DNA from: Escherichia coli
GTDB lineage: Bacteria; Pseudomonadota; Gammaproteobacteria; Enterobacterales; Enterobacteriaceae
NCBI RefSeq assembly: GCF_003018255.1
Contig: NZ_CP027440.1
DNA length: 64,000 nt
Strand: one strand, 5' to 3'
Below, one piece after another: positions 5,853-8,905 of the stretch. The notes under the pieces were generated by a model that did no database searches, was not told where the DNA came from, and saw nothing but the letters and a program-made list of their open reading frames with translations. Position 1 is the stretch's first letter. Every line of letters begins with the position of its first letter. The translations under genes were made by a program, and so were the position numbers.

Positions 5853-5987
5853 CAGGGGGAGAAGATTTTCTCCTGTCCTGATGATTTTGGGGCGCTGGAA
5901 AGATATTGTGCTGTGAAGTGTTAAATCCCTCACAATTCAGTAAGTTGACAGTTGCCTGTCAGACTGAGCATTTGTTAAAAAAATTTC

Positions 5988-6165
5988 GCATGGTGAATCC
6001 CCCTGTGCGGAGGGGCGACTGGTGAACGGTATGATCTCTTTGATGATCGTAAGCGAGAATACGCGGGTTTGGTGTCACCGGGCTGAACTCACCGGGAGGC
6101 ACCCGGCACCATGCTCATGGTGATACAGAAATGCGGCTTCAGCCCCTCTCCGGAGGGGCTTTCTT
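5988..6165 (+). ncRNA. candidate structured sRNA, repeat family A copy 1
   Basis: Promoter-like TTGCCT-18-TAAAAA, then 5' CAUGGUG, hairpin CCCCU-GUGCGG-AGGGG, hairpin CCGGG-AGGCA-CCCGG, 3' CACCAUG pairing back to the 5' end, and terminator GCCCCTC-TCCG-GAGGGGC plus T-run. Confidence 0.45.
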
Positions 6166-6171
6166 ATGGAC

Positions 6172-6240
6172 AAAAAAAGCCCGCGCTGGGAGACGCGGGC
6201 GGCAAGGAATAAACAATAAAACGTGAAGTAATACTTCAAC
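6172..6240 (-). ncRNA. candidate antisense sRNA, family B copy 1
   Basis: Minus-strand TTGCGC-18-TATTAT promoter (plus 6247-6276), ~70-nt transcript with internal hairpin GAAGT-ATT-ACTTC, ending at terminator GCCCGCG..CGCGGGC plus T-run. Confidence 0.45.
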
Positions 6241-6312
6241 TGGCGAATAATACCCGACAGTAATCACTCTGCGCAATAGCGTGGCCTTTTTCGAATTGCG
6301 GGCTGTAGTCTC

Positions 6313-6484
6313 CCTTCTGCCGGGTGTCCTGGTTGCAGATTTCTTCATGGGGTAGGGTTCGGCAGTTAAAGCAGCGATGGTGCTGGGGCGTCGTGCAACT
6401 GGCGTTGAGCTGGATACCGGGCGTTTTGAACAGACTGCGCAGGAAATCAGGGATGTATTTAGCGGGAGCGGTTTGCAGAAGTAA
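6313..6484 (+). pseudogene. 3' fragment of a DNA methyltransferase gene (duplicate of the 4781-4943 region, in-frame TAG)
   Basis: ~170 nt nearly collinear with the 3' end of the intact methylase gene (DLVADFFMG..GRRATGVEL..), interrupted by a stop; lacks the 5' 90% of the gene. Confidence 0.7.
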
Positions 6485-6547
6485 TCTCCCAAAATGCCAT
6501 TTTTGGAATATACTGGTATTAAGTCTTTTTGCTCAGGTTAATTCAAA

Positions 6548-7273
6548 ATGGATGTTGCCTGCTCTGTGGTCCTGATTCGCTATCCGATAGATATTTTTCT
6601 TGAAAAAGAAAAAGTTTCACTCGATGCCGGAAGTGTTATGCTTGTTGCCAGAAATATAAGAGGGCTTTTCTGTGCTTATGCCGACAGAGTGAAAATGGCA
6701 GATATAAGTAACAGCGTCGTCAATCAGTATCTGGAAAGGGAGTGTGAACTGACGGAGTATACACCGACAAAAATGCCTCTTTATTTGATGTCTGATATTT
6801 ACAATACGGAACTGGCGGAGGCTTTAATAACCCAGCATAGTGAATCCAGTGATACTTTGAAGGATTTCTCTGTTATAACCGCATTTTCATGTATCTCCTT
6901 ATTTGCAACAGACAGACGTCTGCCATTATTTTTGTCCGGTGCTGTAAATAATATCAGCTGTAAAGTAAGGGCTATAATTCAGACCGACATATCGGCAGGC
7001 TGGATGCTTGGTGTGATTGCATTACAATTGCATATGAGCGAAAGCTTGTTGAAGCGAAAACTTAAGGATGAAGGTTATAGCTTTAGTCGGTTGTTGCTGG
7101 AGGAGCGAATGCGTGTTGCTGTTAATCTTGTATGTTTCCAGCGAGAGTGTGGACAAGCGATAGCGGAAAAATGTGGTTACTCAAGTAAGTCCTACTTCAT
7201 TTCTGTATTTCACCAGTATTATGGTGCACCACCTGAGAGCTATGCATATTTGCAGAAAGCAGACGTTATCTGA
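6548..7273 (+). CDS. AraC/XylS-family transcriptional regulator (cargo gene)
   Basis: 241-aa ORF with C-terminal dual helix-turn-helix typical of AraC family (..LKDEGYSFSRLLLEERMRVA..IAEKCGYSSKSYFISVFHQYYGAPPESY); start codon uncertain. Confidence 0.7.
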   Translation: MDVACSVVLIRYPIDIFLEKEKVSLDAGSVMLVARNIRGLFCAYADRVKMADISNSVVNQYLERECELTEYTPTKMPLYLMSDIYNTELAEALITQHSESSDTLKDFSVITAFSCISLFATDRRLPLFLSGAVNNISCKVRAIIQTDISAGWMLGVIALQLHMSESLLKRKLKDEGYSFSRLLLEERMRVAVNLVCFQRECGQAIAEKCGYSSKSYFISVFHQYYGAPPESYAYLQKADVI

Positions 7274-7362
7274 TGTTTTTTCATCAGGCATATATTGATT
7301 GACTGTATTAGATATAGTCTGAATGTGTTCAGCATAAAAAGTTATAATCATTTGGTGTTTGC

Positions 7363-7641
7363 GTGAATATTGATGAGAAAATCAGATGTAGCCAACTGTT
7401 ACAGCGTATTGAAGCCGTCAATGTGGAACGAACAAAGGTCTTCAGTCGTCTGACAGTTTTATTTTGTACCCCTGATCGACGTTCAGGTCAGGAGATGGTT
7501 CTTCTGGATGTAGATGCACTTCGGAACGTCTGTGAGGAGTTCACCGCGGCTAATTCGGAGTTACTGAGTCTTGTTCAGGAGTACAACAGAATTGCAGGTA
7601 GTAACGGTTTTGATGAAATCAAAATTATATCCCGTGGATAA
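7363..7641 (+). CDS. hypothetical protein
   Basis: 92-aa ORF with GTG start 15 nt downstream of a perfect TATAAT; no family recognised; weak RBS. Confidence 0.3.
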   Translation: MNIDEKIRCSQLLQRIEAVNVERTKVFSRLTVLFCTPDRRSGQEMVLLDVDALRNVCEEFTAANSELLSLVQEYNRIAGSNGFDEIKIISRG

Positions 7642-7899
7642 AACATATCCTGTATATTTATGTTGTTACATACAGGCGCTTTTAGTATCTGCCGCACGGC
7701 AGTTGTACTTCAGAATAAGATGCTTTTGTGACTGGTGGTGTTGTATCTGGGGTTAGCCAGTAGGCAGGTTCAGAGAGTCCGGTGGTAATTATGTGTATGC
7801 AGTGGTTGTTGCTGTACCGTGGGCAAGTTCTGGAACTGGCTTCGTCCATTGTAGATGATTGTTAGCTGGATATCAGTTACCTCATGGAAATGTTAAATG

Positions 7900-8905
7900 A
7901 CTCACAATTCGGTTGATGGGCTATTGTCTGATCGATGGAAGTCTTGTAAAAACGAGCCAGCATAGTGAATCCCCCTGTGCGGAGGGGCGTCTGACATGGT
8001 CTCCATAGCGATGGTCACAATACGCAGATTCAGTAGTCAGGCTGAATCTACCGGGAGGCACCCGGCACTATGCTGCTTATGGTGTATACATAGCGATCGG
8101 CCCCTCTCCGGAGGGGCTTTTTTTGTGCGGGAAAAGGCTGTGTTGTTAAGTGTTAAATTCCTCACAGTTCGGATGGTTGATGCTTGCCTGTCTGAGGGGG
8201 AGTTGTTAAAAAAGTTCTGCATGGTGAATCCCCCTGTGCGGAGGGGCGACTGGTGTGATTTGCATCTTTTCTGTTGTAGGCAATGCAAACGCGGGTTCAG
8301 GGACGCCAGACTGGACTCACCGGGAGGCACCCGGCACCATGTTCATGATGATACAGATACGCAGTGTCAGCCCCTCTCCTGAGGGGCTTTTTTATGCAGG
8401 AAAAACGCTGTGTTGTGAAATGTTAAATTCCTCACAGTTCAGATGGTTGATGCTTGCCTGTCTGAGGGGGAGTTGTTAAAAAAGTTCTGCATGGTGAATC
8501 CCCCTGAGCGGAGGGGCATATCAGCGCAGGTGTTTCTACTCTATCCTTTCTGTGCGGGTTCAGGTGCTGATACTGAACTCACCGGGAGGCACCCGGCATC
8601 ATGCATATGGTTAACAGACACGTAGCGAAGCCCCTCTCCGGAGGGGCTTTTTTATGCAGGGAAAAGGCTGTGTTGTGAAATGTTAAATTCCTCACAATTC
8701 ATGAGGTTGATGATTGTCTGATTGATGAGGAGTTTGTTAAAAAAAACGGGCATGGTGAATCCCCCTGTGCGGAGGGGTGATATCGTATCATTTCCTGTGT
8801 GGCCGACTGATATCACGGACATTTGTTCACCGGGAGGCACCCGGCACCATGCAGTATACAGAGATTAGGCATACATCCAGGCTCCTCATCGCAGGAGCCT
8901 TTTTA
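7900..8905 (+). repeat. tandem array of four ~250-270-bp units of repeat family A (candidate sRNA genes, copies 2-5)
   Basis: Each unit repeats the promoter-like box, CAUGGUG..CACCAUG closing helix, two conserved hairpins and an intrinsic terminator (ends ~8127, 8395, 8655, 8905); inter-hairpin segments are variable. Confidence 0.8.

Follow-up and report, generated by a model that had tools for sequence, protein, structure and literature searches.

What kind of RNA, if any, is encoded by a family of five repeats lying close together in Escherichia coli, and what is to be made of four of them standing in a row? The repeats lie in a stretch of 64,000 nucleotides (nt) from contig NZ_CP027440.1 (assembly GCF_003018255.1), which was analysed as a whole and is called the window here. 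Each unit is ~250-270 bp long; unit 1 stands by itself at 5952-6166, and units 2 to 5 follow in tandem at 7924-8905, with a start-to-start spacing of 248-270 nt according to repeat comparison. We find that the units are five paralogous genes of STnc100, a small RNA (sRNA) family that has already been catalogued, and hence their novelty as an RNA class is low; the unusual feature is the presence of four copies in a row in the slot for the Shiga toxin genes (stx).

Five STnc100 genes in the stx slot

All five units have the same layout, consisting of a promoter-like box, an 8-nt strand, a structured core, the complementary strand, a linker of 24-27 nt, and a G+C-rich hairpin followed by a T run (Table 1). 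As read from the sequence, the box is TTGCCT or TTGTCT, a spacer of 17-18 nt, and TAAAAA with TG ahead of it. The hairpins CCCC..GGGG and CCGGG-AGGCA-CCCGG occur in 5/5 units. A terminator scan independently detected the terminator-like hairpin and T run of units 1, 2, 3 and 5, while reading of the coordinates gives unit 4 the same stem as the other units; in the region as a whole, 15 terminator-like sites were observed against 3.3 expected. Unit 5 is a short variant that sits directly upstream of an esterase gene. The original prediction, made from the sequence alone, had placed five units here with a promoter-like box, two hairpins and a terminator, and both our reading and the five-unit alignment bear this out.

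A scan of the whole window against Rfam at the gathering threshold (47 bits for RF02076, 'Gammaproteobacterial sRNA STnc100') returned five full-length matches to this family, with model positions 1-206 covered in each. Unit 1 scores 172.4 bits (E = 4e-39) and units 2 to 5 score 119.5, 139.7, 141.2 and 141.3 bits, respectively; because the E-values range from 1e-25 to 4e-39, chance is excluded for all five. The RF02076 consensus structure is kept in the units (closing helix, CCCC/GGGG hairpin, CCGGG/CCCGG hairpin and terminator hairpin), and so is the context of the family, with the units lying in the Q-to-lysis moron slot of a prophage and a convergent partner sRNA next to units 1 and 5. The failure of the original prediction to match the repeats to any named sRNA was an error. 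Since the units match RF02076, the novelty that it implied is largely gone, and the impression of a new RNA class is removed. The remaining interest lies in the rare four-copy tandem array in the stx slot, in a pseudoknot, and in the conservation of the 5' domain across a whole bacterial order.

The region belongs to a lambdoid prophage from an E. coli lineage of the Shiga-toxin type, and over 3.3 kb it shares 99.8% identity with strain 2013C-3181 and with O91:H21 FWSEC0008. The gene order runs from RusA through a Q-like antiterminator (1725-2396), a membrane protein, a DNA methyltransferase, tRNA-Ile, tRNA-Arg and a TolA-like open reading frame (ORF) to unit 1, and then through a YdeO/GadX-like AraC regulator, a 92-amino-acid (aa) ORF and units 2-5 to a SASA/NanS-type esterase, a holin and a lysozyme. 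Placed between Q and the lysis genes, the units occupy the slot that holds stx in Stx phages. In eight Sakai prophages, this 'moron' site downstream of PR' has been described as holding convergent sRNA pairs crosslinked to Hfq, EcOnc27 with AsxR (EcOnc02), 3' of stx2B, being one of them (Tree et al. 2014; PMC4104026). When we checked the EcOnc27 locus in the Sakai genome, STnc100 matched at 207.7 bits directly after stx2B, and AsxR came next on the opposite strand. EcOnc27 is the sRNA103 of strain EDL933; it is northern-positive (PMC7873438) and Hfq-crosslinked (PMC4104026), it overlaps an STnc100 annotation, and single-nucleotide polymorphisms in the stx2-adjacent copy predict the outcome of haemolytic uraemic syndrome (PMC12711010).

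EcOnc27 (Sp5/933W) matches the units in its promoter box, its closing helix, both invariant hairpins and its terminator; it likewise follows Q, tRNAs and cargo, precedes the esterase, and has its partner in the convergent arrangement. Its promoter and 5' part are nearly those of unit 1, whereas its linker is 93% identical to that of unit 5. The window differs in carrying other cargo instead of stx and in its variable inserts and most of its linkers; moreover, described STnc100 copies are single per prophage, whereas here five lie within 3 kb, four of them head to tail. Between the units of the window, identity is 92-100% in the scaffold, 48-70% in the variable insert, 50-77% in the linker and 64-96% in the terminator. 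Because of these module identities, and because the likeness to EcOnc27 is split between units 1 and 5, the units appear to be old, recombining paralogues rather than products of recent duplication.

STnc100 is among the most frequently annotated enteric sRNA families, and it adjoins stx2 and other virulence cargo. Profile-confirmed cores occur in Citrobacter, Enterobacter, E. albertii, Salmonella arizonae, Pantoea, Erwinia, Cedecea, Kosakonia, Lelliottia, Superficieibacter and others, essentially all of them Enterobacterales. True cores were also found in a 'Bacillota' contig and a soil 'Proteobacteria' contig from metagenome-assembled genomes, whose taxon assignment can be unreliable, while GC-rich 17-mer matches outside the Enterobacterales (Streptomyces, Chloroflexi and others) have no profile match and were set aside as chance. 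The single-unit sequence matches in 2,673 of 5,426 complete E. coli genomes, so that about half carry at least one copy, the number of places per genome having a median of 2 and reaching 11 at most; among the matches listed, none carries an RNA annotation. A tandem junction like that between units 3 and 4 is present in 88 of the 5,426 genomes. Tandem arrays recur in other enterobacterial phages and are rare in E. coli, and most of the four-unit array is found in no sequenced phage record. A sister locus (L054) is otherwise identical but lacks unit 3, which indicates that the copy number of the array varies. Natural arrays with different variable inserts, together with this four-copy variant, could be used for tests of dose and specificity.

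Closing helix, P4 and pseudoknot

In the closing helix P1, units 1, 3 and 5 read GCAUGGUG/CACCAUGC (the terminal pair being G-U in unit 3), unit 2 reads GCAUAGUG/CACUAUGC, a double compensatory change, and unit 4 reads GCAUGGUG/CAUCAUGC, a G-U wobble; these variants agree with those first listed. A compensatory change is also present in the terminator of unit 5. The covariation evidence from the five copies alone is thin, because they include only one true compensatory pair. Homologues were collected with nhmmer profiles and anchored extraction: scanning viral contigs for two P5 cores 225-255 nt apart gave 54 contigs, and a profile search of these gave 2-6 cores each, amounting to 105 unique cores (MAFFT alignment A3). 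Over the 105 cores, seven of the eight P1 pairs change on both sides, with 143 doubly changed cells against 47.6 ± 5.4 in shuffles (0/500 shuffles reach the observed value), and the covariation score is 0.225 against 0.108 in shuffles (0/500 reach 0.225) and 0.04-0.10 with the partner columns slid. The covariation of the closing helix hence holds in the larger set.

The two invariant hairpins, P2 and P5, do not vary in sequence across the cores, so covariation is uninformative for both. P5 is exact in 110/126 cores gathered via P2 alone. A contact between the P2 and P5 loops was considered; both loops are invariant apart from a few variants of the P5 loop, in which the P2 loop is unchanged. 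The hairpin P4, for which subfamilies are shifted by one column in alignment A3, was assessed by an anchored stem search with a shuffle control: it has 38 distinct complementary arm pairs, and a perfect anchored stem of at least 7 bp is found in 81% of unique regions against 6.5% of shuffles.

The loop of P4 is complementary to a segment 2-3 nt after P2, and both sides co-vary. Beyond the pairs of the five units (Table 1), those found elsewhere include CUAGAC/GUCUAG, CCAGUUA/UAACUGG, CAGCUA/UAGCUG, UUAACC/GGUUAA, AAUGAC/GUCAUU and AAGCCA/UGGCUU. Over 18 representative classes the mean Watson-Crick run is 5.5 for cognate and 3.0 for non-cognate combinations, and 0/20,000 permutations reach the observed pairing sum; the duplex energy is -6.8 against -2.6 kcal/mol. 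These results support a pseudoknot in the conserved 5' domain, which would be an addition to the known STnc100 fold: the RF02076 model is drawn without it, and the word 'pseudoknot' is absent from a 2026 preprint that proposes, on structural grounds, a common ancestry of STnc100 and PasD1/2 of enteropathogenic E. coli (EPEC) (10.64898/2026.05.13.724894). The segments between the hairpins are indeed variable, as had been claimed, but they are not unstructured, since P4 and the pseudoknot lie inside them.

The first ~29 positions of the RF02076 model (window 5959-5987 in unit 1) cover the -10 region and lie 5' of the likely transcription start; by analogy with the 5' end of PasD2, we take them to precede the transcript. 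The revised fold, with its pseudoknot and its start at P1, calls into question target predictions made from these first ~29 nt. Indeed, a predicted pairing with stxB uses model positions 5-15 (PMC12370729) and may involve sequence that is never transcribed.

Two other structural interpretations were set aside. When one sequence is folded by itself for minimum energy, hairpin 1 pairs with the terminator, which we treat as an artefact of similar sequences because unit 5 and other lineages have different terminators. A tRNA- or tmRNA-like element was considered as well; the units have no tRNA, tmRNA, ribozyme or riboswitch family match in Rfam at E<=1, ARAGORN is silent at the cores of six related loci, and P5 stacked on P1 resembles the T-arm on the acceptor stem in topology only.

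Table 1. Coordinates in the window of the five STnc100 units, the predicted convergent RNAs X1 and X2, and the cargo between the two dyads
Feature	Position	Strand	Promoter-like box	Predicted RNA	P1 strands	Pseudoknot strands	P5	Terminator	Other
Unit 1	5952-6166	+	5952-5981 (TTGCCT, 18-nt spacer, (TG-n-)TAAAAA)	5988-6166	5988-5995/6107-6114	6019-6025 with 6075-6081 (CUGGUGA/UCACCGG)	6092-6106	6141-6160 + U tract	P2 5999-6015; linker 6115-6140
Unit 2	7924-8124	+	7924-7952	7960-8124	7960-7967/8066-8073	7991-7995 with 8036-8040 (CUGAC/GUCAG)	8051-8065	8099-8118
Unit 3	8184-8394	+	8184-8212	8219-8394	8219-8226/8335-8342	8250-8255 with 8304-8309 (CUGGUG/CGCCAG)	8320-8334	8369-8388
Unit 4	8454-8654	+	8454-8482	8489-8654	8489-8496/8597-8604 (one G-U)	8519-8525 with 8566-8572 (UAUCAGC/GCUGAUA)	8582-8596	8629-8648
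Unit 5	8714-8905	+	8714-8743	8750-8905	8750-8757/8845-8852	S1 8779-8784 with 8809-8814 (GAUAUC/GAUAUC)	8830-8844	8880-8899 (unlike those of the other units)	P4 weak
X1, partner of unit 1	6172-6241	-	-35 6276-6271; -10 6252-6247	6172-6241				6200-6179	5' end placed from the -10
X2, partner of unit 5	8912-8990	-	-35 9025-9020; -10 9001-8996	8912-8990				8940-8918	5' end predicted
YdeO/GadX-like AraC-type regulator	6548-7273	+							Cargo, not RNA family; NCBIfam, PHROGs matches; RefSeq label 'helix-turn-helix domain-containing protein'
92-aa ORF	7363-7641	+							Cargo, not RNA family; NCBIfam, PHROGs matches

Independent sRNAs or a portable 5' domain

The units are probably independent, Hfq-dependent sRNAs of ~155-180 nt with a seed in the linker before the terminator. 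Each would form its own transcription unit, in which the RNA is made from a sigma-70-type promoter, begins with the first bases of P1, and stops ~155-180 nt further on at an intrinsic terminator. The first of two modules would be a ~115-nt 5' domain closed by P1, made up of the invariant P2, the variable insert, P4 with the pseudoknot, and the invariant P5 stacked on P1; the second would be the single-stranded linker together with the terminator and U tail, where such RNAs usually bind Hfq and carry their seed. In lysogens, each RNA would come from its own promoter and would act in trans, its linker base pairing with the help of Hfq; as the linkers are not alike from copy to copy, several seeds would be available from the array. 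Once the prophage is induced, polymerase modified by Q would pass through all five terminators. Sibling sRNAs such as Qrr1-5, OmrA/B and PrrF1/2 are likewise paralogues that have a scaffold in common and whose pairing regions differ in part, and OmrA/B and PrrF1/2 are adjacent genes; they belong to the core genome, however, are ~80-110 nt long and have no large pseudoknotted 5' domain.

Homologues provide the experimental part of the argument. In EDL933, all 11 STnc100 copies are transcribed, with a northern blot for STnc100_4 (PMC5331693), and RpoD binds at STnc100 promoters of Salmonella LT2 (PMC10794520). PasD1/2, the EcOnc13 homologues of EPEC E2348/69, are 172-173 nt long and Hfq-dependent (PMC8550237), and the preprint describes the PasD copies as distal, not tandem (10.64898/2026.05.13.724894). 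PasD2 (E2348/69, 741157-741328) has P1, P2, a pseudoknot (AAUGAUC/GAUCAUU), P4 and the same promoter-to-P1 geometry as the units, and PasD lies directly upstream of a sialate esterase gene, as unit 5 does. According to RNA sequencing, the 172 nt of PasD2 run from the first base of P1 to the U tract; its target-derived seed, UGUGAG, is in the linker just before the terminator, and the listed PasD1 chimeras from RIL-seq (sequencing of RNA pairs joined by ligation) map to the 3' ~50 nt (PMC8550237). PasD differs in its shortened P2 and degenerate P5, it falls below the RF02076 threshold, and its seed is absent from the linkers of the window, so that the units and PasD seem to be related at the superfamily level only. 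Taken with the covariation among homologues, these published data agree with the proposal made at the outset that the repeats are functional structured RNAs with their own promoter and terminator and transcripts of ~170 nt.

The layout was surveyed in 195 unique contexts, of which 101 show a -10-like TANNNT with its end 4 nt before P1; a terminator follows within 110 nt in 137, with a median linker of 20 nt; of the rest, at least 12 lead straight into another core, 16 into an ORF (the same 63-aa protein, phrog_1856, in 13 cases), and 30 are unclear.

Several observations weigh against independent seed-driven sRNAs. The case draws on homologues and not on these five copies, for which we infer expression, the linker location of the seed and any targets. 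No STnc100 member has a validated direct target, the effect of sRNA103 on fimZ and espA having no established mechanism (PMC7873438). A consensus promoter scan made no call on the boxes of the units, and with a -10 box, TAAAAA, that lacks the usual final T, the strength of the promoters appears uncertain. The U tract is interrupted in unit 1 (UUUCUU) and has only five U in unit 5, both of which look marginal for Hfq. Finally, across Enterobacterales prophages the 5' domain is far more conserved than the linker, the presumed seed, or the terminator, and it is also found without linker and terminator, either in arrays with ~130-nt spacing or ahead of an ORF. A plain seed-driven sRNA model does not explain this conservation or the linker-less occurrences.

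The strongest alternative builds on this last point, in that the part conserved across the order is the 5' domain rather than the seed. The pseudoknotted domain may itself be the functional unit, for instance as a platform or decoy that binds a host or phage protein, or as a portable 5' stabiliser that blocks 5'-end-dependent decay, with seed pairing being secondary or lineage-specific and arrays raising the dose of the domain; we hold this to be possible, though clearly the less probable of the two. P2 and P5 are nearly invariant across Enterobacterales down to the loop bases, linkers and terminators differ between lineages, cores can be packed ~130 nt apart without terminators between them or precede the 63-aa ORF, and the transcript would start within P1, so that its 5' end is base-paired. 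However, no partner protein is known, no neighbour gene is consistent besides the generic Q and lysis genes, the interaction data for PasD point to the 3' linker, and PasD is abundant and Hfq-dependent despite its altered P5 and P2. In a wider and similarly doubtful form, the domain would be the primary module, either a platform to which some host or phage factor binds sequence-specifically or a fold that binds a ligand; temperate enterobacterial phages would have put it 5' of varied payloads (seeds, small ORFs or further copies) and multiplied it into arrays between Q and the lysis genes. If so, the four-copy array would serve the dose or the specificity of this module, and would not be four ordinary sRNAs.

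A cis role in the late operon, which we judge quite improbable, would have the five terminators insulate the esterase and lysis genes from the moron promoters in the lysogen or, alternatively, would make the units structured leaders that are processed from, or stabilise, the Q-antiterminated late transcript. The Q-to-lysis position is constant in E. coli and in distant phages, the units are co-oriented with the late operon, and five strong terminators lie within 3 kb, all of which would suit such a role. An insulator, however, needs neither a positioned promoter for each unit nor a covarying pseudoknotted domain, and cells accumulate the homologues as discrete sRNAs without induction (PMC5331693, PMC8550237).

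That the core is a ligand-sensing aptamer controlling the terminator downstream is more improbable still. A complex conserved fold closed by P1 and followed by a terminator recalls a riboswitch, and the linker of units 1-4 repeats the P1 5' strand and could compete for the P1 3' strand. Yet pairing of the P1 3' strand with the linker, which gives a hairpin in units 1 and 2, shows no excess across the family (3.05 for cognate against 3.16 for non-cognate strands in 154 contexts). What comes after most units is a further promoter or a convergent terminator, not a regulated gene, and the 137 contexts that end in a terminator have no regulated ORF in view, besides the lack of a riboswitch family match noted above.

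Selfish, MITE-like (miniature inverted-repeat transposable element) repeats or small-protein genes, to which up to 11 places per E. coli genome, an AUG at RNA positions 3-5 in four units and ribosome footprints on some EDL933 copies (PMC5331693) might point, are already contradicted by the data and were rightly rejected in the original prediction: no terminal inverted repeats, target-site duplications or conserved ORF were seen, unit 2 has AUA for AUG, the ORFs are of unequal length and in different frames, most other lineages lack the AUG, with GUGGUG, GCGGUG or GGAACG standing in its place, and the covariation preserves pairing, not codons.

Convergent partners and further observations

The arrangement around the five predicted sRNAs is best read as two dyads of known type (unit 1 with X1 and unit 5 with X2), with cargo and three extra STnc100 units between them, units 2-4 having no convergent partner. 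The tails after units 1 and 5 repeat each other, and each shows on the minus strand a promoter and 5' hairpin together with a U-rich stretch and a strong terminator; in X1, the U-rich stretch contains CCUUGCC, and X2 contains UUCCUUGC in duplicate. The 3' ~52 nt of X1 are very similar to an EPEC sRNA from Hfq RIL-seq, 'E2348C_1409.E2348C_1408.IGR' (proposed seed CUUGCG). Like the anti-sRNAs AsxR and AgvB, X1 and X2 are short, have a strong terminator and lie in the convergent position, and they share the AsxR promoter region, but their RNA bodies are unlike that of AsxR. No Rfam match to X1 or X2 was found at E<=1 in 5300-13400, AsxR (RF02703) and AgvB (RF02702) included; Sakai AsxR itself reaches 88 bits. 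Complementarity between the units and X1 or X2 is unremarkable (z-scores -1.4 to +1.6).

A conserved box, (A)TGTTAAAT..CTCACA.TTC, lies ~40-70 nt 5' of the transcription start of each unit (5920-5946, 7893-7918, 8153-8178, 8423-8448 and 8683-8708), and in units 1, 4 and 5 it reads TGTGA-N13-TCACA. It could be the binding site of a regulator, although its spacing is at odds with CRP.

Related loci show other arrangements of the core. At L004 6557-7061, and also in L005, L017, L026, L037 and L164, four cores lie ~130 nt apart with a TATAAT- or GATAAT-like box before each, no terminators between them and a single one after the last; the L004 array region has no resemblance to any sequenced phage. 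In a distant phage (L010), four cores stand directly between a Q-like gene and the holin, endolysin and spanin genes. There, at 5125-5316, and at 12 other loci of Klebsiella/Enterobacter-type phages, the last core has no terminator, and after ~120 nt comes the conserved 63-aa ORF, of unknown function, which starts MKEGFYWIQHNGRVQVAYY.... ARAGORN reported tRNA-like genes with abnormal anticodon loops (2- or 4-base 'anticodons') close to STnc100-like cores at L004 5518-5590 (+) and L017 3618-3690 (-).

Just past the first dyad, at 6320-6485, a sister genome has a RefSeq DNA-methyltransferase pseudogene fragment, and an intact methyltransferase gene lies at 3885-4943; the fragment appears to be a scar left by recombination when phages exchanged cargo. 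In the gap between esterase and holin, 11095-11300 on the minus strand is possibly a further prophage sRNA, with a terminator CCACCGCCAG...CUGGCGG followed by U7. PasA/PasC occupy this position in EPEC, and the PasA region can be aligned only in part, with 69% mean column identity; a weak Esr41-like match lies at 11104-11177 (25 bits against a threshold of 102).

Elsewhere in the window, Rfam places a C4 antisense RNA (42713-42797, minus strand, 78.9 bits) next to isrK (42825-42901, minus strand, 72.7 bits), a known pair of prophage regulatory RNAs. It also places a tryptophan operon leader at 51556-51649 on the minus strand (93 bits), which places this end of the window in the host chromosome, close to trp.

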